Counted from the first letter of the stretch, positions 33,177 to 57,949 are shown. The stretch is 64,000 nt of DNA from an uncultured Bacteroidales bacterium (GCA_903877385.1 CAIRDP010000006.1:43231-107230); one strand, 5' to 3'. The notes: generated by a model from the letters alone, not told the origin. Numbers and translations: made by a program.

Positions 33177-33527
33177 ATGAGTGCTGAAAGCCTGATTCTA
33201 TTTTTTATAGTCGGGGCATTTTTGGTTGGTATCGCCCTGCTGTTTTCGAGCCTAGTCCCGCCTACGTCCACCAACCCCCAGAAAGCCGAAGCGTATGAGT
33301 GCGGCATCCCCACCGAAGGTATAACCTGGTTGCAGTTCAATGTCGGGTATTATCTTTTTGCCATAATCTTCCTGGTATTCGATGTGGAAACAGTCTTTAT
33401 TTTCCCCTGGGCTGTCATGATGAAATCCATGGGAATGACTGCTTTTATCGAGATCATCATTTTCTTTTTCGTATTGGGTGTAGGACTTCTTTATGCCTGG
33501 AAGAAAGGAGCTTTGAAATGGGAATAA
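33177..33527 (+). CDS. nuoA: Complex I subunit A
   Basis: YECG; FLVFDVE; AWKKGALKW. Confidence 0.95.
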
Positions 33528-34075
33528 AAAGCATGAAGGAAAAGGATTTCCGGGACAACGAAACCCTTGAGTTGTTCAAGAGATCCGGTAGCAATGTGTT
33601 GATGACAACCATCGATGCCGTAATTGACTGGGGGCGTTCCAATTCGGTATGGCCCCTGACCTTTGCGACCAGCTGCTGCGGGATTGAAATGATGGCCACC
33701 GGAGCCGCGCGCCATGACTTTGCCCGTTTCGGGATTGAAGTTTACCGTGCCAGCCCCCGCCAGGCCGATGTGATCGTGGTTGCTGGAACCATCGTCAACA
33801 AAATGGCTCCTGTTCTCAAGCGCTTGTATGACCAGATGTCGGAACCGAGGTATGTTATAGCTATGGGCGCCTGCGCTGTTTCTGGCGGTCCTTTTTACTA
33901 TAATTCCTATCATGTGGTCAGGGGTGTGGATCAGGTGATCCCCGTGGATGTATATATCCCCGGCTGCCCTCCGCGTCCTGAAGCCTTACTCTACGGGATC
34001 ATGCAGCTCCAGAGGAAAATCAAACTGGAAACCATAACCCGCCCCGAAGAATCCATGATCATGGGACATAAATAA
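33518..34075 (+). CDS. nuoB: Complex I subunit B (N2 cluster)
   Basis: TSCCGIEM; MGAC; PGCPPRP; start refined to 33518. Confidence 0.95.
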
Positions 34076-34079
34076 ACAA

Positions 34080-34111
34080 TTTTCGCTATTTCGCTATTTC
34101 ACCATTTCGCT
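34080..34111 (+). repeat. 8-bp tandem array between nuoB and nuoC
   Basis: ttttcgct atttcgct atttcacc atttcgct. Confidence 0.75.
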
Positions 34112-34121
34112 ACTTTTACAT

Positions 34122-34580
34122 ATGGATAACGAAACCTTAAAAGCCAGGATCCTTGAGATTGTGCCTGAAGCACAGCTGGAGGAAAACAAGCAGTATCTCA
34201 CACTGCTGGTTCCTGCAGCCAAACTTCATGACCTGGCAATTAAAATGAAGGATACACCGGAGCTTGCTTTCGATTACCTGATCTGTCTCAGCGGGGTGGA
34301 TTATGGAAAGCAACTTGCTGTTGTATATCACATGAATTCCATCCTGCACAAACATATGGTTGTTCTAAAGGTTAAGACCGATGACCGTTCTGATCCGGCT
34401 TTCGACACTGTAAGCGATATTTGGCGCACTGCCGAGTTTCATGAACGCGAGACCTATGACATGTTTGGTATCAGGTTTAACAATCATCCCGACCTCCGCC
34501 GGATCTTCCTTGAGGAAGACTGGAAAGGGTATCCTCTTCGCAAGGATTATGTGGATGAAGTAAATATCGTTGAATTCTAG
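34122..34580 (+). CDS. nuoC: Complex I subunit C
   Basis: ERETYDMFGIRF..HPDLRRI...W.GYPLRKDY. Confidence 0.95.
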   Translation: MDNETLKARILEIVPEAQLEENKQYLTLLVPAAKLHDLAIKMKDTPELAFDYLICLSGVDYGKQLAVVYHMNSILHKHMVVLKVKTDDRSDPAFDTVSDIWRTAEFHERETYDMFGIRFNNHPDLRRIFLEEDWKGYPLRKDYVDEVNIVEF

Positions 34581-34583
34581 TCT

Positions 34584-35711
34584 ATGAAAGAGATAGTAAA
34601 CCTGCCCGTCAGCAAGATAGAGGAGGAGGAGTACCATATTAACATGGGGCCCCAGCATCCCTCGACGCACGGAGTTCTTCGGCTGCTGGTATCCCTCCAG
34701 GGAGAGATGGTTAAAAGCCTGAAGCCACATTGCGGCTATATTCATCGCGGCATTGAGAAAATGTGCGAAAAGGATACCTACCCCCAGGTGATTCACCTCA
34801 CCGACAGGATGGATTATCTTTCGGCACATATTAACAACCATGCGGTATGCCTCCTTGTTGAGAAAGCATTGGAGATTGAGGTTCCTGAACGGGTAAAATA
34901 CATCCGTACCATCATGGACGAGCTTACCCGCATCCAGTCGCACCAGCTCTGGTGGTCAAGTTTTGGTATGGACCTGGGAGGCCTGACCTGTTTCTTTTAT
35001 GGCCTTCGCGACCGGGAAATGATACTCGACATCTGGGAAGAAACAACAGGAAGCAGGTTCCTTCAAAGTTACAATTGCCCGGGAGGTGTGATGCAGGACA
35101 TCCATCCGAACTTCCAGAAGAAAGTTCATGCATTCATCAAGACATTTAAGAAAAAGATAAAGGATTACGACCGTCTCCTTTCAGGCAATGTTATTTTTGA
35201 AAACCGCAGCCAGGGAGTTGGCTTGCTTTCAAAGGAAGATGCAATCAGCTATGGAGTTACCGGCCCTTCGGGACGTGGTTCGGGCTGGTCATGCGACATC
35301 CGCAAGGTAGAGCCTTACAGTATGTACTCACAGGTTCATTTTAACGAAGTTTTAAGGTACGAATGCGATACCTATGCAAGATATATGGTCCGCATGCAGG
35401 AAATGCACGAATCGATGAACATCATAGAGCAGCTTATCGATAACATCCCTGAGGGCGATCATTCGGCCAAAATGAAAGCGGTGATCAAGTTGCCTGCCGG
35501 TGAATATTTTCAGCGTGTTGAATCGGCCCGTGGAGAACTAGGCGTTTATGTGGTGAGCGACGGCAATAAAACCCCGTACAGGATGAAGTTCCGCACCCCG
35601 AGTTTCACCAACCTGGGTGTACTTGACCATATCAGCCGCGGGATGAAGATTGCCGACCTCGTTGCCATCGGAGCTTCCCTCGATTTAGTAATTCCGGATA
35701 TTGACAGATAA
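34584..35711 (+). CDS. nuoD: Complex I subunit D
   Basis: NMGPQHPSTHGVLR; HRGIEK; RMDY; ESARGE; C-terminal DIDR; no Ni-binding CxxC motifs. Confidence 0.95.
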   Translation: MKEIVNLPVSKIEEEEYHINMGPQHPSTHGVLRLLVSLQGEMVKSLKPHCGYIHRGIEKMCEKDTYPQVIHLTDRMDYLSAHINNHAVCLLVEKALEIEVPERVKYIRTIMDELTRIQSHQLWWSSFGMDLGGLTCFFYGLRDREMILDIWEETTGSRFLQSYNCPGGVMQDIHPNFQKKVHAFIKTFKKKIKDYDRLLSGNVIFENRSQGVGLLSKEDAISYGVTGPSGRGSGWSCDIRKVEPYSMYSQVHFNEVLRYECDTYARYMVRMQEMHESMNIIEQLIDNIPEGDHSAKMKAVIKLPAGEYFQRVESARGELGVYVVSDGNKTPYRMKFRTPSFTNLGVLDHISRGMKIADLVAIGASLDLVIPDIDR

Positions 35712-35723
35712 AAACAAGGTAAT

Positions 35724-36812
35724 ATGACCTTTAATATTTACGATTTTACATCGTTTAACAGGTGGATTGACGAGGGGCTGAACAGCATCATGTCGCCTAC
35801 CTGGGCACTGATCACCGAAATGGCAATCATAGGGATAGTCTTCCTGCTTTTTTATGCAGTTGTCGGTCTTTTCCTGGTATATGCCGAAAGAAAGGTTTGT
35901 GCTTTCATGCAGAACCGTGTGGGCCCTAACCGTGTCGGGCCTTACGGGATCTTCCAGACCATTGCCGACTTTATCAAATTGCTGATGAAAGAGCTGGTGT
36001 ACATCAAGGATTCCGATAAACTGCTGTTCAACCTTGCCCCGTTCATCGTGATCATTGCTTCTTTCATGGCCCTTTCAGCCGTACCGTTTGCCAAGGGGCT
36101 TCATGCCATTGATTTCGACATCGGCATACTATATGTGATCGCCGTTTCTTCGCTTGGGGTTGTCGGCATCCTGCTGGCTGGCTGGTCCTCAAACAATAAA
36201 TATTCCCTCATCGGTGCAATGAGGAGCGGCGCCCAGATCGTCAGCTATGAACTCTCGGTTGGGCTGTCATTGCTTACAATCATCGTTTTAGCCGGGACCA
36301 TGCAGTTTTCGGAGATCGTTGAAATGCAGAGGAACGGATGGTTCATTTTCAAAGGTCATATCCCGGCAGTTATCGCCTTTATTGTTTTCCTGATCGCCAG
36401 CACGGCCGAAACAAACCGTGGGCCTTTTGACCTGGCTGAAGCCGAATCGGAGCTTACGGCAGGCTTCCATACCGAATATTCGGGGATCAAGTTTGCATTT
36501 TTCTTCCTGGCCGAATATATGAACATGTTCCTGGTCGCATCAATCGGAGCAACCGTATTCTGGGGTGGCTGGATGCCTTTCCATGTGTCGGGATGGGCAG
36601 GGTTCAACACCATCATGGATTACATCCCGCCTTTTGTCTGGTATATCGGTAAAACCGCCTTTATCATCTGGCTGATGATGTTGTTCAAATGGACATTCCC
36701 GCGACTGCGTATCGACCAGCTCCTCACCCTGGAGTGGAAATATCTGCTCCCGATCAACCTGGTCAACATTCTCTTTATGGCATTTTTAGTATTAATGCAT
36801 TGGCATTTTTAG
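35724..36812 (+). CDS. nuoH: Complex I subunit H
   Basis: ERKV...[10 protein letters not shown]; [16 protein letters not shown]. Confidence 0.96.
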
Positions 36813-36818
36813 CATACT

Positions 36819-37298
36819 ATGAACAGCTTCTTTAAGTATTTTTCAGATATTTTCCACGGGGTGAAATCCCTGCTCATCGGGATGTCGGTCACAGGCCGGT
36901 ACTTCTTCAGCCCCGGGCAGATCGTAACACAGCAGTATCCTGAAAACAGGAAAAACCTGCAGATGTTTGAACGTTTCAAGGGTGAGGTCATAATGCTTCA
37001 CGATGAGAACAACCAGCATCGCTGCAATGGCTGCGGTATTTGCGAAAATAACTGCCCGAACGGTTCAATCGAGGTCATCCCGGTAAAGATCACAGGCGAA
37101 GACGGCAAACCGAAACGTATCATCGACAAGCACATCTATCATCTTGGAATGTGCACTTTCTGCGGATTATGCGTAAAAAGCTGCCCCTCCAATGCCCTTG
37201 GTTTCGGACAGGAGTTTGAGCATGCAGTTTTTGACCGTTCCAAACTGAATAAAGTGTTAAATCAACCCGGTTCATCCATTATTAAAGGTGTAGAGTAA
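36819..37298 (+). CDS. nuoI: Complex I subunit I (2x[4Fe-4S])
   Basis: CNGCGICENNCP; CTFCGLCVKSCP. Confidence 0.94.
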   Translation: MNSFFKYFSDIFHGVKSLLIGMSVTGRYFFSPGQIVTQQYPENRKNLQMFERFKGEVIMLHDENNQHRCNGCGICENNCPNGSIEVIPVKITGEDGKPKRIIDKHIYHLGMCTFCGLCVKSCPSNALGFGQEFEHAVFDRSKLNKVLNQPGSSIIKGVE

Positions 37299-37807
37299 TG
37301 ACGAACAATCAATTCATGTTTTTGCTATTTTCGGTGGTGATCGTAGTTTTTTCACTGCTTACAGTGACCAGCCGCCGCATCCTGAGGGCAGCCACTTTCC
37401 TGCTGTTTGTGCTGGTCTCGACGTCAGGATTGTATTTTCTGCTGAGGTTTAACTTCCTTGCGGCAATCCAGCTTACCTTGTATGCAGGAGGTATCGTGGT
37501 CCTGATCATTTTCTCGGTGCTGCTGACCAGCCATATCAGCGAAAAACTGGCGATTCCGCCGGTTACAAAGAGGATATTTGCCGCAATTGCCGCCATTGCA
37601 GGTGCGGTTTTATGCATACTCACTATTTTGCAGACCCAGTTTGTACAAAAGACATTCGACCCTGCAAGAACTAATATCAGGACTATAGGCGAAGGCATGC
37701 TGAGTACCGGTAAGTACGGCTACGCACTGCCTTTCGAAGTCATCAGCGTTTTACTGCTGGCAGCCATGATAGGCTCAATAATTCTGGCTAAGAAAAGAAA
37801 AGATTAA
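37298..37807 (+). CDS. nuoJ: Complex I subunit J
   Basis: QLTLYAGGIVVL; PFEVISVLLLAAMIGS. Confidence 0.93.
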   Translation: MTNNQFMFLLFSVVIVVFSLLTVTSRRILRAATFLLFVLVSTSGLYFLLRFNFLAAIQLTLYAGGIVVLIIFSVLLTSHISEKLAIPPVTKRIFAAIAAIAGAVLCILTILQTQFVQKTFDPARTNIRTIGEGMLSTGKYGYALPFEVISVLLLAAMIGSIILAKKRKD

Positions 37808-37823
37808 TTAAAAAATACCCGTT

Positions 37824-38141
37824 ATGTTTGAAGGTGTACCTATTCATTGGTTCCTGGTCCTGTCCACTTTGATGTTTTTCATTGGGATTTATGGCTTCCT
37901 GGTAAGGAAAAACCTGATTACCATGCTGATGTCAATCGAACTCATTTTGAATTCGGTTTGTATCAATTTTGTGGCATTCAATAAGATCCTTTACCCAGGA
38001 CATCTCGAAGGGATGTTTTTCACACTTTTCATCATTGCGGTTGCCGCAGCCGAGGCTTCCGTAGCGATCGCAATCATCATCAACATATACCGCCGTCTGG
38101 TGAACATCGATGTGGAGAAGATGGATGAAATGAAATACTAG
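37824..38141 (+). CDS. nuoK: Complex I subunit K
   Basis: MSIELILN; AAAEASVAIA. Confidence 0.95.
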   Translation: MFEGVPIHWFLVLSTLMFFIGIYGFLVRKNLITMLMSIELILNSVCINFVAFNKILYPGHLEGMFFTLFIIAVAAAEASVAIAIIINIYRRLVNIDVEKMDEMKY

Positions 38142-38206
38142 CCATGAGGCATAAGCCATGAGCCATGTGGGAGAATATCATGGCTCATGGCTCATCACTC
38201 ATGGCT
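38140..38206. repeat. Inverted 7-bp array (AGCCATG x4, 11-nt spacer, CATGGCT x4) between nuoK and nuoL
   Basis: agccatg aggcata agccatg agccatg ... catggct catggct catcact catggct. Confidence 0.85.
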
Positions 38207-38242
38207 TTTAAAACAATAACTAACGCATAATATAACCAACAT

Positions 38243-40162
38243 ATGATCGATTTCAGTTACACTATCTGGATACTGCTGATACCTCTGATAGTATTCGTGG
38301 TCACAGGGCTTACGGGCAACAGGTTCAAACCCATTGTCACCGGGATTATAGGAACTGCGGGGCTGGGTGTTGTATTTTTGCTTTCAGTCATTACCGCGTA
38401 TAAATTCTTTTTTGTGCTCGACAAGGTTGGCGGTGCCTTTCAGCGGCTGCTGGCATTCAATCATACATGGCTGCATCTGACCGACAAGCTGCATATCGAC
38501 ATCGGTGTTTTACTTGATCCCATCTCGGTAATGATGCTTATCGTCATTTCCACCGTATCCTTTATGGTGCATATCTATTCCCTGGGTTATATGAAAGGGG
38601 AAAAAGGCTTTGCCAGGTTTTTCTCTATCCTTTCGCTGTTCAGTTTCTCTATGCTCGGGCTTGTCATTGCCACCAACATTTTCCAGATGTATATTTTCTG
38701 GGAGCTTGTAGGGGTTTCATCCTTTCTGCTGATTGGCTTCTACTATGAAAAAGACTCGGCAGTGGCTGCAAGCAAGAAAGCTTTCATTGTCACCCGTTTT
38801 GCCGACCTGGGTTTCCTTATCGGGATCCTGCTTCTTTCTTATACGACGGGCACCTTTGATTTTATTACACTCACAGGCCCGAACAGCCCGGCTTTCACTT
38901 CCGGACAGGGGATCATGTTCCTGGGAATGTCGACCATGACCTGGTCTATGCTGTTTGTCTTCATGGGTGGCGCCGGAAAATCGGCCATGTTCCCCCTGCA
39001 TATATGGCTTCCCGATGCCATGGAAGGCCCTACCCCGGTTTCGGCCCTCATCCATGCTGCCACCATGGTTGTTGCCGGTGTTTACCTTGTTGCACGTATG
39101 TTCCCGATTTTCCATCATGAACAGTCGGCCCTTGAGATCGTGGCATGGGTCGGAGGGTTCACTTCTTTATTTGCCGCGGTGATTGCATGTACGCAATATG
39201 ATATTAAGCGCGTCCTGGCCTATTCGACCATGTCGCAGATTGGCTATATGATGCTGGCCCTCGGTGTTTCAGGTTACGGGGGCGAGGATGGCCTCGGGTA
39301 TATGGCATCGATGTTCCACCTGTTCACCCATGCCTTCTTTAAAGCCTTGCTCTTCCTCGGTGCCGGCGCGATAATCCATGCCGTACATTCGAATTATATG
39401 AACGAGATGGGGGGGTTACGGAAGTACCTTCCAATCACGCATGCAACTTTCCTCATCGCCTGCCTTGCAATTTCAGGAATACCCCCGTTTGCAGGGTTCT
39501 TCAGCAAAGACGAGATCCTGGTTGCCGCCTTCCATCACAACAAAGCCTTGTTTGCCATGGAATACCTGGTTGCAGGCATGACTGCATTTTATATGTTCCG
39601 CCTTTATTTCAACGTGTTCTGGGGACAGGAACAGCATTATCATCATACTCCTCACGAAGCCCCGGTAACGATGACTATACCCCTGATCATCCTGGCTATC
39701 GGTTCGACCTTCGCAGGCTTTATTCCCTTTACAAAACTTGTAACATCCGACAGTCTTCCCTTTGAGAGCCACACAGAATGGGGAATTGCAATACCTTCAA
39801 TTCTCATCGCGCTGGCGGGTATCGGCATAGCCACTATGCTGTATATGAAGAAGTCCGACACATCAAAGAAGATTGCGACGGCTCTCGGCGGGTTTTATAC
39901 AGCCGCCTACGGCAAGTTCTACATTGACCAGGTTTATCTTTTCATTACCAAGAAAATATTGTTCAATTATGTTTCCAGGCCGGTTGCATGGTTCGACCGT
40001 CACATCGTCGACGGGACCATGAACCAGTTCGCTTATGTTACCAACGTGGTTTCCGACAGGATCAAAGGATTCCAGAGCGGCCAGCTGCAGCAGTATGCCC
40101 TCGTGTTCATCTCGGGGGTTATCGCCCTTGCTTTGTTATTCATCTATTTATGGACCAATTAA
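38243..40162 (+). CDS. nuoL: Complex I subunit L
   Basis: WELVG; GKSAMFPLHIWLPDAMEGPTPVSALIHAATMV; HAFFKALLFL. Confidence 0.96.
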   Translation: MIDFSYTIWILLIPLIVFVVTGLTGNRFKPIVTGIIGTAGLGVVFLLSVITAYKFFFVLDKVGGAFQRLLAFNHTWLHLTDKLHIDIGVLLDPISVMMLIVISTVSFMVHIYSLGYMKGEKGFARFFSILSLFSFSMLGLVIATNIFQMYIFWELVGVSSFLLIGFYYEKDSAVAASKKAFIVTRFADLGFLIGILLLSYTTGTFDFITLTGPNSPAFTSGQGIMFLGMSTMTWSMLFVFMGGAGKSAMFPLHIWLPDAMEGPTPVSALIHAATMVVAGVYLVARMFPIFHHEQSALEIVAWVGGFTSLFAAVIACTQYDIKRVLAYSTMSQIGYMMLALGVSGYGGEDGLGYMASMFHLFTHAFFKALLFLGAGAIIHAVHSNYMNEMGGLRKYLPITHATFLIACLAISGIPPFAGFFSKDEILVAAFHHNKALFAMEYLVAGMTAFYMFRLYFNVFWGQEQHYHHTPHEAPVTMTIPLIILAIGSTFAGFIPFTKLVTSDSLPFESHTEWGIAIPSILIALAGIGIATMLYMKKSDTSKKIATALGGFYTAAYGKFYIDQVYLFITKKILFNYVSRPVAWFDRHIVDGTMNQFAYVTNVVSDRIKGFQSGQLQQYALVFISGVIALALLFIYLWTN

Positions 40163-40174
40163 AACGATAAAATA

Positions 40175-48967: not shown

Positions 48968-49750
48968 ATGGCAATTGAAAAACAGCGTGTAGAATCGCTG
49001 GAGGAAATCGTCTTCAAGAACCGTAATAAGGAATACGGCTCATATGTTCTTCGAAAGAAGTACCGCCGGTATCTTACGATTTCTTTAATCGTTGGCATCC
49101 TCGTCCTTCTCTCCGCCGCTGCCTATCCTTTGATTAATGCATACCTGAACAAGGAAAAATTGCTCAGGGAAAAGGAGAAATCAGTAACGGCAGAAATGCT
49201 GAACATGCCCAAAGAAGACCTGCCTCCCCCTCCGCCGCCGCCACCACCACCTGAGGCACTTGTTGAAAAGGTGAAGTTTACCGCACCCAAGGTTGTGGAA
49301 GACACCAACGTGGAATCCGATTTCGGTAAGCAGGACCTGCTGAACCAGAATAAAAATACGGAAGTCCCGACCGAAGAAGTCCAGGTGGAAGAAAAAGAGG
49401 TAAAAACCCAGGTAATAGAACAGAAAGTGGAAGCCGAAGTGTTCCTCATCGTTGAAGAACCTCCTACATTCCCCGGTGGGGAAGCTGCCCTTTATAAATG
49501 GCTTGGGGAAAACCTCAAATATCCCGAAGAAGCCAAGGAACTTGGTATACAGGGACGTGTTTTCGTTGCTTTCGTTGTTGAACCCGACGGATCGACCAGT
49601 AATGTGGTTGTGAAACGCGGTATCGGCGGCGGTTGCGACGAAGAAGCAATCCGTATCGTGAAAGCCATGCCCAAATGGGCTGCCGGCAAGCAACGCGGAC
49701 AGCCAGTGCGTGTGCAGTTTAACTTACCCATCAAGTTTACATTGCAGTAA
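48968..49750 (+). CDS. tonB: Energy transducer TonB
   Basis: TM helix, poly-Pro linker, YPEEA..GIQGRV; C-terminal TonB domain. Confidence 0.92.
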   Translation: MAIEKQRVESLEEIVFKNRNKEYGSYVLRKKYRRYLTISLIVGILVLLSAAAYPLINAYLNKEKLLREKEKSVTAEMLNMPKEDLPPPPPPPPPPEALVEKVKFTAPKVVEDTNVESDFGKQDLLNQNKNTEVPTEEVQVEEKEVKTQVIEQKVEAEVFLIVEEPPTFPGGEAALYKWLGENLKYPEEAKELGIQGRVFVAFVVEPDGSTSNVVVKRGIGGGCDEEAIRIVKAMPKWAAGKQRGQPVRVQFNLPIKFTLQ

Positions 49751-49770
49751 AACTGCGATAAACTAAACAG

Positions 49771-49837
49771 AAACCCTTAATTTTTCCTTTTGCCGGGTAT
49801 CATCCGGAAGATTTGAAGGAAAGATTAGGGGTTTTTT
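49771..49837 (+). terminator. Long-stem terminator after tonB
   Basis: aaacccttaatttttcctt pairs with aaggaaagattaggggttt (G-U wobbles), then a T-run. Confidence 0.6.
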
Positions 49838-49848
49838 ACTTGAAAAGC

Positions 49849-50982
49849 ATGAATGCCGCCACCCTTAGTCCTTTTGTAAGCAGCAAATTCAGGTTCTGGT
49901 CTTTTATATCTATGGTGCTGCTGGTGTTCGTGCATGGTTATAATATGCAGGAGCGTTACCTGCAACCCTGGACCATCCCGGGAGAGCCTTTTTCAATTTC
50001 AGGTTTTATTGAATATTTCCTTGCAAACGGGATCTTCCGGTTCAGGATACCCATGCTGTTCATCATATCGGGCTACCTTTTCGCAATGCATGATGACCGC
50101 CCGTATAAATCCCGTGCAAGGAAGCGGTTTCGCACCTTGTTCCTTCCTTACCTGATATGGAGCGCCCTGGGCCTTGTATTCACCTTTGGGCTTGAGATGT
50201 TTCCCTGGAGCCGTGCCCTGGTCTCTGGATCGCATGTGGTACAGATAGACAATACAAGGATGCTGCTTCATGATTATAAATTGTATGAGATGCTGGTGCG
50301 CTGGATACTACTCCCGGTACCCTACCAGCTCTGGTTCATCCGTGTGCTTTTCATATATAACCTTGCTTACCCCGGGATCCGGTGGTGTGTCATGAACAGG
50401 ACAGGGAGATGGATCTTCTTTGCTTTTGCTTCCCTGCTGTGGTTAGCCACTATCAATGTTGGGATAATTGAAGGCGAAGGTCTGCTTTTCTTTTCACTAG
50501 GGATCTGGATGCAAAAGAACAGCTTCAATATTGAAAGTCCGTCATCCTGGCTGAAACCCTCACTGTGGGGCCTTTTGTTCGTTTCAATTGCATTCCTAAA
50601 AACCTTCCTGGCCTGGAAAGGGCAACAATTCCTTGGAGGTGCAGCCTTCCCCGTCCTTACTCTGATACATAAAGTGGTTGTACTGAGCGGGCTTATTGCA
50701 TGCTGGTACGGCCTCGATCCAATCGTAAAATGGTTCATGAAGCGCCCCTGGTTCACCTGGCTGAGCGCATTCGCATTCATTATATATGCTATGCATACAC
50801 CCCTGGTTGCATATGCCATCACTCCTTTCCTTTCCCTGCTTGAACCAATGCCTGCCTTCCACCTTGCAGCTTTTATTCTGCTACCCTTAATTGTCATCGG
50901 GTTTTGCATTATCACAGGATTTCTTCTCCGTATCCTGGTCCCGAAAATATATGGCGCCCTAACCGGCGGAAGAGGAATGTGA
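49849..50982 (+). CDS. Acyltransferase-3 family membrane protein
   Basis: VLLVFVHG; RIPMLFIISGY; YQLWFIR; IYAMH; about 10 TM helices. Confidence 0.85.
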   Translation: MNAATLSPFVSSKFRFWSFISMVLLVFVHGYNMQERYLQPWTIPGEPFSISGFIEYFLANGIFRFRIPMLFIISGYLFAMHDDRPYKSRARKRFRTLFLPYLIWSALGLVFTFGLEMFPWSRALVSGSHVVQIDNTRMLLHDYKLYEMLVRWILLPVPYQLWFIRVLFIYNLAYPGIRWCVMNRTGRWIFFAFASLLWLATINVGIIEGEGLLFFSLGIWMQKNSFNIESPSSWLKPSLWGLLFVSIAFLKTFLAWKGQQFLGGAAFPVLTLIHKVVVLSGLIACWYGLDPIVKWFMKRPWFTWLSAFAFIIYAMHTPLVAYAITPFLSLLEPMPAFHLAAFILLPLIVIGFCIITGFLLRILVPKIYGALTGGRGM

Positions 50983-51097: not shown

Positions 51098-51120
51098 TAC
51101 TGTTAAAATATTAACAGTAC
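51097..51120. promoter_or_regulatory. Rex-like operator at hdrC
   Basis: GTACTGTTAA-AATA-TTAACAGTAC, perfect 10-bp arms, covering the expected transcription start. Confidence 0.75.
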
Positions 51121-51131: not shown

Positions 51132-51704
51132 ATGATAACACTCTCATACAAAGGGAAAAACACCTTCCTGGAAGCCGTGAATAAAAAGAGCGGCTCAGAC
51201 GTTCTGGAATGCTACCAGTGCGGCAAATGCGTGTCGACCTGCCCGGTCTCGAATTTCATGGATTTTCCACCCAGGGAGATCATGCAGATGATCAAGCTGG
51301 AACTCAAGGAGGAGGCCCAGATGGCCAACTCCACCTGGTTCTGTCTGACCTGTTCGGCCTGTTCAGGCCGCTGTCCCCGCGAGATCAATATTCCCGCGGT
51401 TATGGAAGCAGTGCGCCACATGGCCATAGAGGAAAACTTCCATCCCGACTCAAAGCGGGTAAAAAACATCAGGAAGTTCCACGAGATCTTCCTCGATATG
51501 ATCAAGCGTTACGGGAGGAATTACGAATTAAGGATGATGGCCGAATTCAATATCCGTACCCGAAACCTCTTCAAGGATATGCACCTGGCCCCGACAGCGC
51601 TGCTTAAAGGCAAGATCCCATTAGGTGTGAAGCCACTGAAGAGTAAAAAAGCCATCAAAAAGATGTATGAGATGGCAGAAAAACTTGAAAAACAGAATAA
51701 ATAA
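51132..51704 (+). CDS. hdrC: Heterodisulfide reductase subunit C
   Basis: CYQCGKCVSTCP; CLTCSACSGRCP. Confidence 0.93.
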   Translation: MITLSYKGKNTFLEAVNKKSGSDVLECYQCGKCVSTCPVSNFMDFPPREIMQMIKLELKEEAQMANSTWFCLTCSACSGRCPREINIPAVMEAVRHMAIEENFHPDSKRVKNIRKFHEIFLDMIKRYGRNYELRMMAEFNIRTRNLFKDMHLAPTALLKGKIPLGVKPLKSKKAIKKMYEMAEKLEKQNK

Positions 51705-51715
51705 GCCTGTTTAAG

Positions 51716-52660
51716 ATGAAAAAAGTAAGTTATTTCCCGGGATGTTCAGCCCACGGCACCAGTGAGGAGTTCGATGAAACGGTTAAGATGGTCATGAAGA
51801 CAATGGATGTCGAAATGGAGGAGATCCCCGACTGGAACTGCTGCGGTGCCACCTCAGCCCATACCCTGAGCGAAAGCCTTGCCTACGCGCTTCCGCTGCG
51901 AAACCTGGTACTGGCCGAGAAACTGAGCAACGATACAATGACCATTCCCTGCGCTTCCTGCTACCAGAGAATGAAAGCGACCAAGGTGCATATGGATGAA
52001 GATCCTGAACTCGCAGCCAGGATAAATACTGCAGTTGTGGGTGAAGGAAAATATGAAGGAAAGGTTGCCATAAAATCGATGCTTCAATACTGCTACGAGG
52101 ATATGGGCCTTGAAGCCATTAAGGCAAAGGTGACCAACCCGATCAGCGGGATGAAGCTGGCCTGTTATTATGGCTGTTTGCTTACCCGCCCCAAGGCAAT
52201 CACCCAATTCGATTCACCCGAATATCCCATGTCGATGGACTACATCGTGGAAGCCCTGGGAGCGAAGGCTACGCCTTTCGATTTCAAGACCGAATGCTGC
52301 GGTGCTTCTTTTTCCATTTCCGATACTGATATTGTGCTCCAGCTGAGCGGAAAGATCCTGGAAATGGCAAAAGAAAGCGGTGCCCATGCAATCGTTGTTG
52401 CCTGCCCGCTCTGCCAGTCGAATCTCGACATGCGGCAGCACGATATCGAAAAGAAATACAATGTTAAATATGATCTCCCGGTTTTCTACCTGACCCAGCT
52501 GATGGCCATTGCTTTCGGGTTCCCGAAGGAAAAAATGATGTTCAGCAAACATATCATTCCTGTCGACTCAGCCCTGGCCCATATTGGAGAAGTTATTGAA
52601 GAACCGAAGAAACCCGTGAAAGGTAAAAAAGCCGTCCAGGCAGAAAGTGAGGTTGAATAA
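51716..52660 (+). CDS. hdrB: Heterodisulfide reductase subunit B
   Basis: Two CCG domains: GC...NCCGA...CASC and YGC...ECCGA...CPLC. Confidence 0.94.
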   Translation: MKKVSYFPGCSAHGTSEEFDETVKMVMKTMDVEMEEIPDWNCCGATSAHTLSESLAYALPLRNLVLAEKLSNDTMTIPCASCYQRMKATKVHMDEDPELAARINTAVVGEGKYEGKVAIKSMLQYCYEDMGLEAIKAKVTNPISGMKLACYYGCLLTRPKAITQFDSPEYPMSMDYIVEALGAKATPFDFKTECCGASFSISDTDIVLQLSGKILEMAKESGAHAIVVACPLCQSNLDMRQHDIEKKYNVKYDLPVFYLTQLMAIAFGFPKEKMMFSKHIIPVDSALAHIGEVIEEPKKPVKGKKAVQAESEVE

Positions 52661-54633
52661 TGGCAAGAGTAGGAGTATTCGTTTGTTTCTGCGGCGCCAA
52701 CATCGCCGATTTTGTGGATGTCCCCACGGTAGTTGAGGAAGCCAAAAAAATCAGGGAGGTAAAGTTTGCCGTTGACTATAAGTACATGTGTTCCGATCCT
52801 GGTCAGCAGATGATCAGGGATGCCATTGTACAATACAGGCTCACTTCGATTGTGGTTGCCGCCTGTTCACCCCGCATGCATGAGAAAACCTTCCGCAAGG
52901 CCCTCAGCGATGCCGGGATGAACCCCTATCTCCTGGAAGTTGCCAACATCCGTGAGCATTCATCATGGGTGCACCAGAAAGATAAAAAAGCTGCCACTGA
53001 AAAAGCAGGCGACCTGGTGAGAATGGCCGTTGCAAAAAGCATTGCCAATGAACAGCTGCACGAGATCTCGGTACCGGTTACCAAGCGTGCCCTGGTCATA
53101 GGCGGAGGTATTGCTGGCATACAGGCGGCACTTGATATTGCCGATGCCCGCATCCCCGTGACCCTGGTTGAACGCAGCCCTTCGATAGGGGGCCGCATGG
53201 CTCAGCTTGACGAGACATTTCCTACCCTCGACTGTTCACAGTGCATCCTTACCCCGAAAATGGTTGATGTAGCTTCACATCCGTATATAGAGCTCATTCC
53301 TTATTCAGAAGTTATAGAACTCAACGGTTACGTTGGGAATTACAAGGCCAGGATCCGCAAAAAAGCCTCTTATGTGAATTTCAAGTCATGTACAGGCTGC
53401 GGAGCATGCTGGCAGAAGTGCCCGGTGAAGGTTCCGAATGAATACAATATGGGGATAGACAAGCGTAAAGCAATTTACACACCTTTCCCCCAGGCAGTAC
53501 CCAACAAACCGGTTATTGATGCCGAACATTGCACAATGCTACTGAAAGGCAAATGCGGGATCTGTGCAAAGTTTTGTGAAAAGGGTGCCATCGATTTCAA
53601 GATGGTGGATGAGGTGATCGAAAGGGAAATAGGCGCTGTTGTTGTGGCAACCGGCTATGATCTTTGGGATGCAACACCCTATGAAGAGTATGGTGTGGGG
53701 CGTTACAAAGACATCATCAACTCACTGGAATTCGAAAGAATGGTTTCGGCCAACGGACCAACTGGCGGCCTTCCGATAAGGCCTTCCGACGGAAAAGTCC
53801 CGAAGTCCGTGGTCTTTATCAAATGCGTGGGATCCCGCGACAAGGCCAAGGGCATAGAGTTCTGCTCGAAGATATGCTGCATGTATACTGCCAAGCACGC
53901 CATCCTCCTGCATCATAAAGTGCATGATTCCAGGGCTTATATTTTTTACATGGACATACGCGCCGCAGGTAAGGGATATGAAGAGTTTGTAAACCGGGCT
54001 CAGGTGGAAACCGGTGCGGTTTACCTTCGGGGCCGTGTTTCAAAGATCTACCAGAAAGGCGATAAGCTCATGGTGCGCGGTGAAGATGGAAATCTGGGGC
54101 AGGAAGTGGAAGTTGAAGCCGACCTTGTAGTTCTTGCCACCGCAATTGTTCCTTACAAGGAGAACCCTGCCCTGGCCCGGCTGCTTGGTATTTCATACGA
54201 CAAATACGGGTATCTCTCCGAAGCCCATCCTAAGCTGAGGCCGGTTGAAACAGCCAAAGCCGGTATTTTCCTGGCAGGCTGCACACAGGCTCCCAAGGAT
54301 ATTCCCGAAACAGTGGCCCAGGCATCGGCCTGCGCAGCCAAGGTTTGCGGGCTTTTCGCAGGCGATACCATGAAGAAAGACCCTATGGTTTCAACGGTAA
54401 ACAAAGAATTCTGCAGTGGTTGCCAGAACTGTGTAACTGTATGCCCTTACCAGGCTATTGTCACCGAAGACATTCCCCTGGGTCATGGAGCAAAGGAAAC
54501 CCGCACCGTGGCCAAGATCAACGAAGGCGTTTGCCAGGGTTGCGGCTCCTGCGTTGCAATCTGCCGTTCAATGGCCATCAACCTGGCCGGTTTTACAGAT
54601 CCTCAAATCATTAACGAGATAGTTGCCATCTAA
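52660..54633 (+). CDS. hdrA: Heterodisulfide reductase subunit A (bifurcating flavoprotein)
   Basis: AACSPRMHE; GGGIAG; LEFER; CVGSR; CSKICCMYTAKH; inserted and C-terminal ferredoxin domains. Confidence 0.96.
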   Translation: MARVGVFVCFCGANIADFVDVPTVVEEAKKIREVKFAVDYKYMCSDPGQQMIRDAIVQYRLTSIVVAACSPRMHEKTFRKALSDAGMNPYLLEVANIREHSSWVHQKDKKAATEKAGDLVRMAVAKSIANEQLHEISVPVTKRALVIGGGIAGIQAALDIADARIPVTLVERSPSIGGRMAQLDETFPTLDCSQCILTPKMVDVASHPYIELIPYSEVIELNGYVGNYKARIRKKASYVNFKSCTGCGACWQKCPVKVPNEYNMGIDKRKAIYTPFPQAVPNKPVIDAEHCTMLLKGKCGICAKFCEKGAIDFKMVDEVIEREIGAVVVATGYDLWDATPYEEYGVGRYKDIINSLEFERMVSANGPTGGLPIRPSDGKVPKSVVFIKCVGSRDKAKGIEFCSKICCMYTAKHAILLHHKVHDSRAYIFYMDIRAAGKGYEEFVNRAQVETGAVYLRGRVSKIYQKGDKLMVRGEDGNLGQEVEVEADLVVLATAIVPYKENPALARLLGISYDKYGYLSEAHPKLRPVETAKAGIFLAGCTQAPKDIPETVAQASACAAKVCGLFAGDTMKKDPMVSTVNKEFCSGCQNCVTVCPYQAIVTEDIPLGHGAKETRTVAKINEGVCQGCGSCVAICRSMAINLAGFTDPQIINEIVAI

Positions 54634-55118
54634 TGGAAGCAGAAGTAAAAGACAAGATTGTAAGCATTGAAAAACCCGAAATCATCGCCCCTCCCGACTG
54701 GAAGCCGGTGATCGTTGGAATTCTCTGCAACTGGTGTTCCTATGCAGGCTCCGACCTTACCGGGACCTCGCGCATGCAGTATCCGCCGAATATACGGATC
54801 ATCCGGGTTCCCTGTTCTTCACGCGTGGATCCCTGGTTTATAATAAAGGCTTTACAGACCACTGCGGATGGAGTGCTGATCTCGGGCTGTCACCCGGGCG
54901 ATTGCCATTACATCAGCGGGAATTATTATGCACGCAGGCGTTTTCTGGTCACCAAGGAGCTGCTCAAGATGGTAGGTTTTCATGAGCACAGGGTCCAGTT
55001 CAGCTGGGTCTCGGCAGCCGAAGGCGCCAAATTCGCCCAGGTCGTGAAAAAAGTGACTGATGATGTCGTAAAACTCGGCCCTCTTCATTTGTATAAAAAA
55101 GAAAATTTCAACAAATAA
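54633..55118 (+). CDS. flxD: MvhD-like [2Fe-2S] subunit
   Basis: CNWCSY; RVPCSSR; GCHPGDCHY; WVSAAEG. Confidence 0.9.
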   Translation: MEAEVKDKIVSIEKPEIIAPPDWKPVIVGILCNWCSYAGSDLTGTSRMQYPPNIRIIRVPCSSRVDPWFIIKALQTTADGVLISGCHPGDCHYISGNYYARRRFLVTKELLKMVGFHEHRVQFSWVSAAEGAKFAQVVKKVTDDVVKLGPLHLYKKENFNK

Positions 55119-55969
55119 TGGACTATTCAAAAGAAATCCGGGACATTGCGGCAAAACTGTTTGCAGACGGGAAGATCGACGTATTCGTCGGCTACCGGAT
55201 GAACGGTTTCGACGACAACCAGGTTCCTGTTGTGATCACCGATCCGAAGGAAGTGTCCACTCTTGTTTTTACCGAAAAATCGGTGTTCAACCTAACGAAC
55301 TACCTGAAGACCGACCATACCCGCGGCAAACGGGTAGGCCTGATCGTAAAAGGATGTGACAGCCGTTCACTGAACCTTCTTCTTACCGAAAGCCAGGTGA
55401 AGCGCGACAGGCTTTACATCATCGGCATAGCCTGCGAAGGAGTTGTTGATGACAAGGGTGTGAAAATGCAGAATTGCACGGAATGCATTGTTCCCGATGC
55501 CGTTGTGTTTGACGAAATGCTGGGCAGTCCAAGGGGTAAGAAAGATTATATCGTGAATGCCGACATCAGGGCATTGGCCGAAAAAGGGCTTGTTGAACGC
55601 AGGGAATATTTCGAAGAGATATTCGAAAACTGCATCCGCTGCAATGCCTGCCGCCATTCCTGCCCGCTCTGTTATTGCGCCAAATGCTGCATCGACCAGG
55701 AAACTGCCTCGCTCTACAATGGGTCGAACACCGCCTCCAGCGCTTTCCATGCACTGATGACATGGTCGCTGCACCTGGCCGGACGTTGTGTCGATTGCCG
55801 CAATTGCGAGAAAGCCTGCCCAAGCCACCTGCCACTGCATCTTCTGCATAAACAGAACGAGAAAGTGATCTTCGAAAACTTTCAGAACCACCTGGCCGGT
55901 GTTGAAGAAGGCGAACGGGGAGCGTTCTACAAATACAGCCTAAAGGACCCCGACGATTTTATCATGTAA
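55118..55969 (+). CDS. flxC: 4Fe-4S protein FlxC
   Basis: CIRCNACRHSCPLCYC; CVDCRNCEKACP; position in hdrCBA-flxDCBA order. Confidence 0.82.
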   Translation: MDYSKEIRDIAAKLFADGKIDVFVGYRMNGFDDNQVPVVITDPKEVSTLVFTEKSVFNLTNYLKTDHTRGKRVGLIVKGCDSRSLNLLLTESQVKRDRLYIIGIACEGVVDDKGVKMQNCTECIVPDAVVFDEMLGSPRGKKDYIVNADIRALAEKGLVERREYFEEIFENCIRCNACRHSCPLCYCAKCCIDQETASLYNGSNTASSAFHALMTWSLHLAGRCVDCRNCEKACPSHLPLHLLHKQNEKVIFENFQNHLAGVEEGERGAFYKYSLKDPDDFIM

Positions 55970-55983
55970 TCAGAACACAGATT

Positions 55984-57039
55984 ATGAGCTTTTCAACCTT
56001 TGTTACCGATACAGCTGGCTTGCAAAAAATGTTTGAAGCCATCATCAGCAAACATGAAACGTATGCTCCCGTTGAGAAATTCGGGAAATTCGACTATAAA
56101 AAAGTTTCATCGCTGAAGGAATGCAACCCCGATTCACCCATTGATGCAACTATGAGCGTGAAACCCTTGTTTTTCCCGCGAGCTTCAAAGATCATAAAAT
56201 ACGAAGCCAGCAGCGCAGGGACAAGCATCCATGAAACTGATGAAGATCCGATAGCAGGGAAACGTGTGATCCTGGGAGTGAAACATTGCGATGCCAGGGG
56301 ATTACAGGTGCTGGAAGCCGTGAACAAATGGGATTACATTGACAGCGATTTCCTGAAACGCCGCGCCAACACGGTGATCTTTTCCACACGTTGCGACAAG
56401 GCCGACACGCAGTGTTTCTGCACCTCACTCGATTACGATGTGGAAAATCTTGATGCGATGGATGTGGCGATTATCAACGGGCCTGATGGAAGGATTTACC
56501 TCTGTGCCCGAACTGAAAAAGGCGAAAACTTTCTCACCCAGAACCCGGCTCCCGGCTCCCGGAACCCGGAACCCATTGCCCAGGAAGAAATGAAAAAGCA
56601 ATACGAAACTTTCGCTGCATCCTTCCGCCTTAAAATGGACTACAAGGATGTGAATGAGAAGATGTCGAAACGCTTTGATTCGCCTGCATTTGAAGAAGCT
56701 TCACGCAATTGCGTAAGCTGCAACACCTGTGCATTCATCTGCCCGACCTGCCATTGTTTCAAGATCTCCGACGAGAAGATCAGGGATACAGGCCTGCGCT
56801 ACAAGAGCTATGATTCCTGCAACAACGCGTATTTCACACTGGAAGCAGGGGGCCATAACCCCCGCCCGGCCAAGTACCGCCGCTGGAGGCAAAGATCCAT
56901 GCATAAATTCGTTTACTACAAGGAGCGTTTTGGGGTAAATCTTTGCGTGGGATGCGGGCATTGCGCCATCTCCTGCCCCGTGAACATTTCCATCTTTGAG
57001 GTGGTGAACCATGTCGCAAACGCCCCTGTTGAATCATAA
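55984..57039 (+). CDS. flxB: 4Fe-4S protein FlxB (AsrA/HydB-like)
   Basis: CVSCNTCAFICPTCHCF; CVGCGHCAISCP. Confidence 0.82.
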   Translation: MSFSTFVTDTAGLQKMFEAIISKHETYAPVEKFGKFDYKKVSSLKECNPDSPIDATMSVKPLFFPRASKIIKYEASSAGTSIHETDEDPIAGKRVILGVKHCDARGLQVLEAVNKWDYIDSDFLKRRANTVIFSTRCDKADTQCFCTSLDYDVENLDAMDVAIINGPDGRIYLCARTEKGENFLTQNPAPGSRNPEPIAQEEMKKQYETFAASFRLKMDYKDVNEKMSKRFDSPAFEEASRNCVSCNTCAFICPTCHCFKISDEKIRDTGLRYKSYDSCNNAYFTLEAGGHNPRPAKYRRWRQRSMHKFVYYKERFGVNLCVGCGHCAISCPVNISIFEVVNHVANAPVES

Positions 57040-57064
57040 TTTGGTGATGCAGGTTATTAATTGT

Positions 57065-57106
57065 GTTCGATATTCAACATTCGTAATTCAATATTCGATA
57101 TTTTAA
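57065..57106 (+). repeat. 7-bp-periodic array, ATTC(A/G)AT family, copy 3
   Basis: gttcgat attcaac attcgta attcaat attcgat attttaa. Confidence 0.8.
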
Positions 57107-57115
57107 ACAGATAAT

Positions 57116-57949
57116 ATGGAAGCCCTTTTAGTTCCCTCCCTTGCCAAAGTTGAAAGGATCATCCAGGAAACTCCTGACGTTCGCACCTACAGGCTGAAGT
57201 TTAAGGATGACAGCCTCATGGAAAAATTCAGCTGGCATCCGGGGCAGTTCGTGGAATTTTCCCTGCTGGGTTCCGGGGAGTGTACATTCTGCATTTCCTC
57301 ATCGGTCACCCGCAAGGGGTATTTCGACTGCTCCATCAAGAAAGCAGGAATAGTAACAGCCGACATACATACCGATCTCGAGGAAGGCGATGACGTGGGA
57401 ATACGTGGTCCTTACGGCAACTGGTTCCCGACCGACGACATCAAGGGGAAGAACCTGTTGTTTGTAGGAGGCGGAATAGGACTTGCCCCTTTGCGTTCAC
57501 TGATACAATATGCGATAGACAACCGAAGTGATTACAAGGACTTCACGATATTATACGGGGCCCGCACATCCGCAGACCTTTGTTATAAAGAAGAGATCGA
57601 AGAATGGAAGAAAAACACCGGTATCAGGGTCGTTCTCACCATCGACAAGCCTGAAGATACCTGGAAAGAAAATGTAGGTGTTGTTCCAAAGATCCTCGAG
57701 GAAGTCGTGAAACCTGAGATCGCCAACACCAAGGTCATCACCTGCGGTCCGCCGATCATGATAAAATATACGCTTCAGTCGCTCGACCGCCTGGGATTCT
57801 CGCCCGAGCATGTTATAACCACTCTTGAAATGAAGATGCAGTGCGGCCTTGGCAAATGCGGCCGCTGCAATATCGGCAGTACCTATATCTGCAAAGACGG
57901 CCCGGTTTTCACTTATGCCCAGTTGAAGGCACTGCCTGACGAGTTTTAA
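57116..57949 (+). CDS. flxA: FAD/NAD(H)-binding oxidoreductase FlxA (AsrB/PyrK-like)
   Basis: PGQFV; RGPYGN; GGGIGLAP; CGPPIM; MQCGLGKCGRC...CKDGPVF. Confidence 0.88.
   Translation: MEALLVPSLAKVERIIQETPDVRTYRLKFKDDSLMEKFSWHPGQFVEFSLLGSGECTFCISSSVTRKGYFDCSIKKAGIVTADIHTDLEEGDDVGIRGPYGNWFPTDDIKGKNLLFVGGGIGLAPLRSLIQYAIDNRSDYKDFTILYGARTSADLCYKEEIEEWKKNTGIRVVLTIDKPEDTWKENVGVVPKILEEVVKPEIANTKVITCGPPIMIKYTLQSLDRLGFSPEHVITTLEMKMQCGLGKCGRCNIGSTYICKDGPVFTYAQLKALPDEF

Follow-up and report, generated by a model that had tools for sequence, protein, structure and literature searches.

A headless complex I operon and a Flx-Hdr cluster share a putative Rex-type operator and a conserved neighbourhood in Bacteroidales

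A 64-kb stretch of the genome of an uncultured Bacteroidales bacterium (contig C6:43231-107230, hereafter the window; genome 4.3 Mb, 98% complete) carries an 11-gene complex I operon without the NADH-input module, here called nuo-11, and downstream of it on the same strand the genes of a complete Flx-Hdr complex in the order hdrCBA-flxDCBA. We find that each of the two gene sets stands behind a copy of one putative Rex-type operator, that they occur together across the order Bacteroidales, with an enrichment of hdr-flx where Rnf and Nqr are absent, and that they are neighbours in five different arrangements, one of which is a single 22-gene cluster. Together these observations support the functional pairing of headless Nuo with Hdr-Flx that had been proposed in a first-pass annotation of this DNA. 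The reading we prefer, at a probability of about 0.45, is that bifurcating Hdr modules under Rex control give low-potential electrons to the headless Nuo, which with Hdr-Flx would form one unit for the disposal of NADH.

Results

A headless complex I operon lies upstream of a complete Flx-Hdr cluster

The genes of the window were annotated by Pfam. Eleven nuo genes in continuous order occupy positions 33177-43131 of the plus strand: nuoA (33177-33527), nuoB (start at 33518 or 33533, end at 34075), nuoC (34122-34580), nuoD (34584-35711), nuoH (35724-36812), nuoI (36819-37298), nuoJ (37298-37807), nuoK (37824-38141), nuoL (38243-40162), nuoM (40175-41686) and nuoN (41722-43131). Pfam finds no nuoE, nuoF or nuoG in this operon, and the first-pass annotation was right that the NADH-input module is missing from it. 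When the encoded subunits are aligned with their paralogues from a second nuo operon on contig C47 (see below), the redox ligands of the Q-module prove to be intact: NuoB keeps the N2 cysteines (CCG...GACA...GCPP), NuoI keeps both 4Fe-4S motifs of the form CxxCxxCxxxCP (CNGCGICENNCP and CTFCGLCVKSCP), and NuoD keeps the HPSTHG and DRMDY motifs with the quinone-site His and Tyr. Since these ligands are kept, the window Nuo looks like an electron-transferring enzyme and not a mere antiporter. Between nuoK and nuoL there is a hairpin (38140-38206) built of the heptamer repeats AGCCATG and CATGGCT, with 28-nucleotide arms that are 89% complementary and an 11-nucleotide loop.

The distance of 8.0 kb between the two gene sets agrees with that first reported, nuoN ending at 43131 and hdrC beginning at 51132. 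From there all seven FlxABCD-HdrABC subunits, each with its expected domains, are encoded contiguously on the plus strand (51132-57949): hdrC (51132-51704), hdrB with two CCG domains (51716-52660), hdrA with FAD and 4Fe-4S sites (52660-54633), the MvhD/FlpD-like flxD (54633-55118; Pfam FlpD), flxC (55118-55969) and flxB (55984-57039) with matches to Fer4 families and Fer4_22, and flxA (57116-57949), whose FAD/NAD-binding and 2Fe-2S domains match NAD_binding_1 and DHODB_Fe-S_bind.

The two operons share a putative Rex-type operator

The palindrome TGTTAANNNNTTAACA (TGTTAA-N4-TTAACA) occurs with at most one mismatch at exactly three sites in the window, against 0.08 expected, and none of 100 shuffles reached three. 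All three lie at promoters, and the claim that nuo, hdr-flx and nrfHA share one operator thus stands for the window. The first putative operator (TGTTAGCAGATTAACA, 3357-3372, one mismatch) begins 21 nucleotides before nrfH and overlaps the nrfHA -7 box TAGCTTTG; the second (TGTTAACATGTTAACA, 33159-33174) is perfect, follows the -7 box TAAATTTG by 10 nucleotides and ends 3 nucleotides before the nuoA ATG; the third (TGTTAAAATATTAACA, 51101-51116) is also perfect, follows the -7 box TAACTTTG by 3 nucleotides and lies 16 nucleotides before hdrC. None of the three palindromes is assigned to a strand. Each operator therefore overlaps, or starts no more than 10 nucleotides after, a TAnnTTTG element, which we take to be the Bacteroidota-type -7 promoter box, and this position suggests repression by occlusion. 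The core of the palindrome equals that of the Rex box consensus TTGTTAANNNNTTAACAA (TTGTTAA-N4-TTAACAA), a consensus drawn from Clostridia, while the host here belongs to Bacteroidales (e.g. PMC5367854, PMC8457756).

Relatives of the window keep two of the sites. Upstream of hdrC, the arms are kept and the spacer varies in three related metagenome-assembled genomes (L010, L011 and L012), and a fourth (L009) has a one-mismatch site; upstream of nuoA, the sister genus G122 has a one-mismatch site in the same place (L094:3366). The nrfH operator is absent in G122.

The genome encodes a regulator that could read these sites. The gene at C63:53792-54433 matches PF06971, scores 200 bits against the NCBIfam Rex cut-off of 126, and its product has the winged-helix N-terminal and Rossmann domains of the family. 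Genome-wide, intergenic DNA contains 7 perfect and 27 one-mismatch sites where Markov-1 simulations give 0.07 and 3.2, an enrichment of about 10-fold, and in a separate genome-wide count 38 of 41 operator sites were intergenic. Behind these sites are genes known as classic targets of Rex, namely three hydC-hydB-hydA [FeFe] hydrogenase operons and PFOR, the latter with its own one-mismatch Rex-type site 36 nucleotides upstream; a reading of the sequence adds another such target, a crotonase/acyl-CoA dehydrogenase operon, and also a methylmalonyl-CoA epimerase with a carboxyltransferase, and a glutamate dehydrogenase. A perfect Rex box also heads the minus-strand operon C63:89070-97166, which is preceded by a Crp/Fnr-type gene and encodes an HdrA-like protein (601 residues), a QmoC-like Fer4 and membrane protein (376 residues), a second HdrA-like protein (574 residues), MvhD, the NiFe small and large subunits and a maturation protease; its gene content predicts a Qmo-like Hdr that is anchored in the membrane and linked to an Mvh hydrogenase. 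Taken together, these genes have the look of a Rex regulon. Several other matches stand before genes for secreted or type IX secretion system proteins, MutS2 and RarA; these resemble chance hits or have no ready explanation, and we set them aside.

The rex gene itself is the last of the minus-strand operon C63:53792-62104, which starts with hydC, hydB and hydA and has a one-mismatch site 140 nucleotides upstream. Also in this operon are a gene for a HydS-type sensor, in which a histidine kinase is joined to a HydA-like domain, and two genes of the response-regulator type; with the site in that position, Rex may control its own expression along with that of an H2-sensing relay. Shortly before the window begins, the minus-strand cluster C6:16180-21854 is headed by a multihaem cytochrome c lipoprotein (361 residues, Pfam Cytochrome_C7) and also encodes a cytochrome-b-like membrane protein; a one-mismatch Rex box lies 87 nucleotides upstream of it, and a Crp/Fnr-type regulator adjoins.

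nuo-11 and hdr-flx occur together, and nitrite reductase does not follow them

Co-occurrence was examined in 151 genomes of 149 genera drawn evenly from the order. Flx-type HdrA (at least 57% identity) was found in 22, window-type NuoD in 58, NrfA in 67, true NuoF in 15 and orf108 (see below) in 28; 20 had no PF03116 match and hence neither Rnf nor Nqr. By Fisher tests, in which shared ancestry is uncorrected, nuo-11 is present in 21/22 genomes with hdr-flx and in 37/129 without it (odds ratio 52, p 2e-9), in line with the pairing that the first-pass annotation had proposed. The association holds also for the higher-identity nuo-11 subtype with unfused NuoC and NuoD (19/22 vs 15/129, odds ratio 48, p 3e-12), and hdr-flx is associated likewise with the absence of Rnf and Nqr (13/22 vs 7/129, odds ratio 25, p 1e-8) and with NuoF (11/22 vs 4/129, odds ratio 31, p 4e-8). 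Every one of the 20 genomes without Rnf and Nqr has nuo-11 and 13 have hdr-flx. Four (G004, G057, G098 and G146) combine hdr-flx and nuo-11 and lack NuoF, Rnf and Nqr altogether.

The window also encodes a menaquinol-dependent cytochrome c nitrite reductase on the plus strand, nrfH (3393-3980; Pfam Cytochrom_NNT) and nrfA (4025-5545; Cytochrom_C552, E 1.6e-174), and a coupling of nuo and hdr-flx to nitrite ammonification had been part of the original proposal. This part fails: across the 151 genomes nrfA accompanies hdr-flx in 7/22 cases and is found in 60/129 genomes without it (odds ratio 0.54, not significant), its odds ratio with nuo-11 is 0.52 with no specific association, and the sister genus lacks the nrfH operator. 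We therefore reject a special link to nitrite ammonification; NrfHA is one possible quinol sink and no dedicated partner.

Five arrangements keep the gene sets together

A scan of species-representative genomes with HdrA gave 80 loci, whose gene order was checked by tblastn with the window proteins. The order hdrCBA-flxDCBA is kept in most of them, across many phyla in which the HdrA of such clusters is 55-61% identical to that of the window, and nuo genes within 10 kb of hdr-flx were seen in Bacteroidota only. The nearest relatives of the genome in the same scan are uncultured Bacteroidales from lakes, and the window locus was detected in DNA runs from freshwater and lake metagenomes. Among the carriers of hdr-flx that the scan gave are also cultured bacteria, such as Bacteroides oleiciplenus YIT 12058 and Segatella paludivivens DSM 17968.

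Five arrangements keep nuo-11 and hdr-flx as neighbours. In the window and in G122, nuoA-N and orf108 are followed by seven other genes and then hdr-flx, with the 8-kb gap. In G057, nuoA-N, orf108, hdrCBA and flxDCBA are contiguous, and in G074 and G071 the order is reversed, hdrCBA-flxDCBA being followed after 38-211 nucleotides by nuoA-N. In G114 the genes form a 22-gene single-strand cluster, hdrCBA-nuoA-N-orf108-flxDCBA, with gaps of 0-45 nucleotides, so that nuo splits the two halves of Hdr-Flx; a metagenome-assembled genome from Lac Pavin (L087) has the same arrangement independently, its first part alone being confirmed as the sequence ends at nuoN. In the fifth arrangement (L046, L053 and L059) nuoA and hdrC diverge from a common spacer of about 250-370 nucleotides, which contains a one-mismatch box in two of the three. 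In the HdrA tree, the copies that lie next to nuo are spread over at least three distinct clades with good support, among copies that do not.

In a further genome, G045, what comes after nuoA-N and orf108 is a set of hdrCBA-like genes, mvhD, the genes for both NiFe subunits (small and large) and HycI. This predicted module would be an H2-dependent Mvh-Hdr at the position of hdr-flx, and if Mvh-Hdr replaces Flx-Hdr there, the common factor is the bifurcating Hdr core and not the donor. A full 14-gene nuo operon (nuo-14) also lies just downstream of flxA in G122, L008 and L009; this adjacency notwithstanding, the co-occurrence and the interleaved cluster point to nuo-11 as the partner.

Two details of the HdrA tree may be recorded here. 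The clade of the window HdrA sits on a long branch apart from other Bacteroidota HdrAs. The contig L012 (SACF01000072.1) is labelled 'Alphaproteobacteria bacterium', carries tonB-hdrCBA-flxDCBA with an HdrA 89% identical to that of the window, and is nested in the Bacteroidales clade; it is probably mis-binned.

A twelfth gene marks one subtype of nuo-11

The sample contains two subtypes of Bacteroidales nuo-11. The first has a fused NuoCD (open frames of about 525-580 residues) and a NuoD identity of 53-65%, and is without orf108; the second has separate NuoC and NuoD (at least 64% identity), mostly with orf108, and Hdr-Flx is found almost solely with it.

The gene orf108 (43179-43505, plus strand, 108 codons) is a conserved twelfth gene, placed after nuoN. 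Its product is soluble and has neither a Pfam match nor an Fe-S motif; a single cysteine is nearly invariant, and the C-terminal tail is aromatic. It has 173 homologues, every one annotated as hypothetical. An AlphaFold2 model (predicted local distance difference test score, pLDDT, 80) shows a small alpha/beta domain for which a fold search against the PDB gave no significant match (best E 0.023). The gene comes after nuoN in L088, L089, L091, L092 and L093, and follows nuoN in all the arrangements where the sequence extends that far, except in G071. The 28 sample genomes that have it all have nuo-11 (28 of the 58 nuo-11 genomes), and in them it shares a contig with nuoD at a distance of about 8.5 kb. 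A role as an Hdr-specific adaptor was considered and rejected, because orf108 tracks the nuo subtype and not hdr-flx (odds ratio within nuo-11 genomes 2.4, p 0.17); we treat its product as a twelfth subunit or an assembly factor.

Downstream of orf108 there is a looser inverted array of ATTCGAA-type units (43510-43607; 36-nucleotide arms, 72%), and sequence reading finds a small hydrophobic open reading frame of about 65 codons (MKKYYKYFAYAVAALYFILG..., 43636-43832) between orf108 and the next gene, which is PBP-like. That gene is the first of the seven unrelated-looking genes between orf108 and hdr-flx (43963-50982, plus strand), the others encoding a TPR protein, ExbB, two ExbD, TonB and an acyltransferase. 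Upstream of nuoA is an F-type ATP synthase operon (25905-31438, plus strand).

The genome has a second complex I, no Rnf or Nqr, and a two-cysteine DsrC

A second, complete nuo operon of 14 genes lies on contig C47 (approximately 8585-22041), without a Rex box. It includes nuoE, nuoF and a short nuoG (about 335 residues), and its NuoF, encoded between NuoE and the short NuoG, scores 568 bits against the equivalog cut-off of 558.65. The organism thus has one canonical and one headless complex I. Between nuoJ and nuoK of the C47 operon, a 130-codon open reading frame (C47:16396-16788) looks by eye like a four-helix-bundle protein of the 23S rRNA intervening-sequence type. That Flx-Hdr stands in for NuoEFG, as the first-pass annotation had it, accordingly survives in part: the four genomes with hdr-flx and nuo-11 and no NuoF, Rnf or Nqr speak for it, and in the window genome the presence of NuoEFG in a second full operon means that Flx-Hdr is not the sole possible entry for NADH.

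The genome has six Complex1_51K (NuoF-like) genes: the one true NuoF on C47, three partners of [FeFe] hydrogenases and two partners of GltD/FdhA-like proteins. The NuoEF-like genes on C63, C67 and C11 were considered as stray heads for Nuo-11 and rejected, those on C63 partnering the [FeFe] hydrogenases and those on C67 and C11 the GltD/FdhA-like proteins, all of them below the NuoF equivalog cut-off. None of the six is RnfC, and PF03116, which matched in the positive control B. thetaiotaomicron, has no match in the genome; neither Rnf nor Nqr is therefore encoded. The search for menaquinone genes suggested at the outset found them in another form than the classical men pathway, which we reject: MenD is absent, unlike in the B. 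thetaiotaomicron control, and two VitK2_biosynth genes of the MqnA/MqnD type are present (C67:92294 and C51:29060), so that menaquinone appears to be made by the futalosine route. In other respects the gene set is that of a fermenter, with genes of the butyrate and propionate type beside PFOR and three bifurcating hydrogenases.

A cluster of sulfur-relay and Hdr-like genes is present at C57:36843-53538. It encodes two DsrC-family proteins, one of which (C57:42544-42861) matches PF04358 (E 1.7e-32), ends in ...GACRVAGLPKPDGCV and has both redox cysteines in the arrangement CysB-x10-CysA. The cluster also encodes DsrE-like and TusA proteins, an MvhD-like protein, a 210-residue membrane protein followed by a DsrK/HdrD-like Fer4 and CCG protein (a DsrM/K-like pair), two large HdrA-like proteins with a QmoC-like protein, and an SQR-like flavoprotein with a one-mismatch box upstream. 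With these genes the organism would have a carrier of the DsrC type at its disposal, and possibly also a connection through the membrane from DsrC to menaquinone.

Discussion

A model for the electron flow

In this study we have brought together a headless complex I, a Flx-Hdr complex and a putative Rex-type operator that had been seen side by side in one window of Bacteroidales DNA. The direction of electron flow that we infer starts with a rise in NADH/NAD+, on which Rex would leave its operators and nuo-11 and hdr-flx would be expressed together, in the window species along with nrfHA. FlxABCD would oxidise NADH and pass the electrons to the HdrA flavin, where bifurcation would occur. The high-potential electron would go through HdrBC to a protein disulfide, for which the two-cysteine DsrC of C57 is the best candidate and, by analogy with the proposal for Desulfovibrio, the likely partner of HdrB, and the low-potential electron to ferredoxin or a ferredoxin-like carrier. 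This carrier would be re-oxidised by the headless Nuo, which would reduce menaquinone and pump protons, and the menaquinol would feed whichever terminal reductase is present, NrfHA being one option. Reduced DsrC could pass electrons back to menaquinone through the adjoining DsrMK-like pair. Two facts make us favour a soluble carrier: nuo-11 occurs without hdr-flx in 37 genomes, and PFOR is a further source of reduced ferredoxin.

Several observations weigh against this model. The most serious is that with NuoEFG present the route is needless for transfer from NADH to menaquinone and brings no obvious energetic gain, and a full NuoEFG-containing complex I is found not only in the window genome but in 11/22 of the hdr-flx genomes. 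Nor does Nuo need Hdr-Flx, given the 37 sample genomes with nuo-11 and no hdr-flx, in which PFOR-derived ferredoxin would be a sufficient donor. The neighbourhood is not universal, the two gene sets being far apart or on different contigs in at least five genomes, and on different long contigs in several. None of the clusters contains a ferredoxin gene, and none of those in G057, G074, G071, G114 and G045 has a canonical Rex box. The Fisher statistics treat related genomes as independent, and among the RNA runs searched for the window locus none contained it.

Alternative explanations

One alternative, which we consider unlikely, though it deserves to be taken seriously, is that the two systems are co-regulated without direct electron flow between them. 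Nuo would then re-oxidise ferredoxin from PFOR and other 2-oxoacid oxidoreductases, and Hdr-Flx would separately keep the pools of NADH, ferredoxin and DsrC in balance, for instance to serve the sulfur relay of C57, the two being neighbours through an anaerobic energy island under Rex. The Rex-type site of PFOR, the breadth of the Rex regulon and the genomes with nuo-11 and no hdr-flx all agree with this, as does the fact that nuo-14, too, adjoins hdr-flx in L008, L009 and G122, so that respiratory genes cluster generally. What it leaves unexplained is that hdrCBA and flxDCBA, whose products must assemble together, are split by the nuo operon in two independent assemblies (L091 and L087), that the adjacency takes five different forms, and that the co-occurrence reaches 21/22.

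A physical rather than a regulatory link is the basis of another explanation, which seems to us rather improbable. Here Hdr-Flx or Hdr-Mvh would take the place of NuoEFG by docking on the NuoB/C/D/I arm, perhaps together with orf108, and the low-potential branch of HdrA would be wired directly to the Fe-S chain. The result would be a proton pump in the membrane that is driven by bifurcation and works without soluble ferredoxin. Direct docking stays in play as a rival because of the interleaved operons and because no cluster contains a ferredoxin gene; the gaps of 0-45 nucleotides in the 22-gene cluster, the 38 nucleotides between flxA and nuoA in L089, the conservation of orf108 at the nuoN end and the Mvh-Hdr module at the same position in G045 are all in its favour. 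Yet the same nuo subtype with orf108 is found in 15 genomes without hdr-flx, the adjacency is not universal, and no fusion proteins were seen. Moreover, the potential of menaquinone is already above that of NADH, so that it is hard to see what a docked bifurcating head would gain thermodynamically, except where the disulfide is strictly required as a second acceptor. In its boldest form, to which we allow a similarly small chance, HdrABC modules (with Flx for NADH and Mvh for H2) would be interchangeable heads physically replacing NuoEFG on the nuo-11 of an environmental Bacteroidales clade, with orf108 as adaptor. If that were true, there would be a membrane machine of some 19-22 subunits that splits electrons between a DsrC-type disulfide and menaquinone, with proton pumping driven by the branch at about -500 mV: a new class of respiratory complex I.

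That Nuo-11 borrows an NADH module, either the C47 NuoEFG or one of five other NuoEF-like pairs, we regard as very improbable. Six Complex1_51K proteins are on offer in the genome, but the true NuoEFG genes are inside their own complete 14-gene operon, to which they look dedicated, three of the other pairs are [FeFe] hydrogenase partners, four related nuo-11 genomes have no NuoF at all, and Prevotella proteomics found no NuoEFG with the headless complex (PMC6560451). Least probable of all is the reverse mode, in which Nuo-11 would use the proton-motive force to drive menaquinol electrons, for example from the SQR-like enzyme, onto ferredoxin and Hdr-Flx would confurcate ferredoxin and thiol electrons into NADH: the SQR-like flavoprotein and the sulfur-relay cluster (DsrC, DsrE, TusA) on C57 would suit it, but the rest of the gene set is a fermenter's, and Rex-type control, which fits the NADH-oxidising direction, would switch the operons on at high NADH, the opposite of what a route producing NADH needs.

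Relation to known systems

In Desulfovibrio vulgaris Hildenborough, 2015 work by Ramos and colleagues on FlxABCD-HdrABC reportedly proposed NADH as the donor, with ferredoxin and DsrC as acceptors; to our knowledge, NADH-dependent bifurcation by the Desulfovibrio complex has been proposed and not demonstrated. The window cluster encodes the same seven proteins with the same domain set (an NAD/FAD/2Fe-2S FlxA, Fe-S proteins FlxB and FlxC, an MvhD-like FlxD, HdrA, an HdrB with two CCG domains, and HdrC), and a two-cysteine DsrC is present in the genome. It differs in its gene order, hdrCBA-flxDCBA, in its non-sulfate-reducing Bacteroidales host, in its putative Rex-type box, and in being repeatedly joined to or interleaved with an 11-subunit nuo operon. 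In the searchable literature we found no report that ties Hdr-Flx to an 11-subunit nuo operon of Bacteroidales, and none of an interleaved cluster.

The closest functional parallel is archaeal. In Methanomassiliicoccales, MvhADG/HdrABC provides reduced ferredoxin to a headless Fpo-like complex, with HdrD (PMC7374477). The window genome likewise combines a bifurcating-type HdrABC with an 11-subunit relative of complex I that has no input module, and lacks Rnf, and G045 even has Mvh-Hdr beside nuo-11. The host here is bacterial, however; the donor would be NADH through Flx, the likely acceptor menaquinone instead of a heterodisulfide through HdrD, and the disulfide probably that of DsrC instead of CoM-S-S-CoB. 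No HdrD gene lies beside the window nuo, and a DsrK/HdrD-like protein is encoded on C57. We use the Methanomassiliicoccales scheme as a working analogy and not as a family assignment.

Headless NDH-I (NuoABCDHIJKLMN) is known from Bacteroides and Prevotella (PMC6560451; PMC4453560), its subunits are expressed in Prevotella, and its donor was described as unknown (PMC6560451). The gut operon resembles that of the window in having 11 subunits in the same order and no nuoEFG, but has a fused NuoCD, is without orf108 and coexists with Rnf and Nqr, whereas the window form has separate NuoC and NuoD and orf108, occurs in lineages often without Rnf or Nqr, and is tied to Hdr modules. Ferredoxin has been suggested as the donor of 11-subunit forms in Ignavibacteria and Melioribacter (PMC7509429). 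In Moorella thermoacetica, which contains menaquinone and no Rnf, the proposal is that a headless complex I passes electrons from ferredoxin to menaquinone, and here too a proposed bifurcating enzyme based on HdrA stands beside it in one organism (PMC13391211); the Hdr module in that case (HdrABC-MvhD-MetFV) belongs to methylene-THF reductase, and the accessible part of that account describes no nuo linkage or common operator.

Rex controls respiratory operons in Desulfovibrio (PMC5322295). The predicted Bacteroidales regulon has in common with known ones the core of the palindrome, the presence of a bona fide rex gene, and targets by which NADH is re-oxidised, namely hydrogenases, butyrate-type genes and PFOR; it differs from them in its host and in adding headless nuo, hdr-flx and the Qmo-like/Mvh operon to the predicted targets, with nrfHA in the window species only.

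Implications

Bacteroidota that carry a headless complex I are abundant in guts, sediments and lakes, and the gene context described here points to a concrete partner for the enzyme in the form of bifurcating Hdr modules. In the lineages without Rnf, Nqr and NuoEFG, the Hdr partner may be the sole proton-pumping route from NADH to quinone. If our preferred reading, that Hdr modules give low-potential electrons to the headless Nuo, is true, it would extend the archaeal principle of 'Hdr plus headless Fpo' to bacteria, give Flx-Hdr a physiological role in bacteria other than sulfate reducers, and bring to light a Rex regulon in the phylum.

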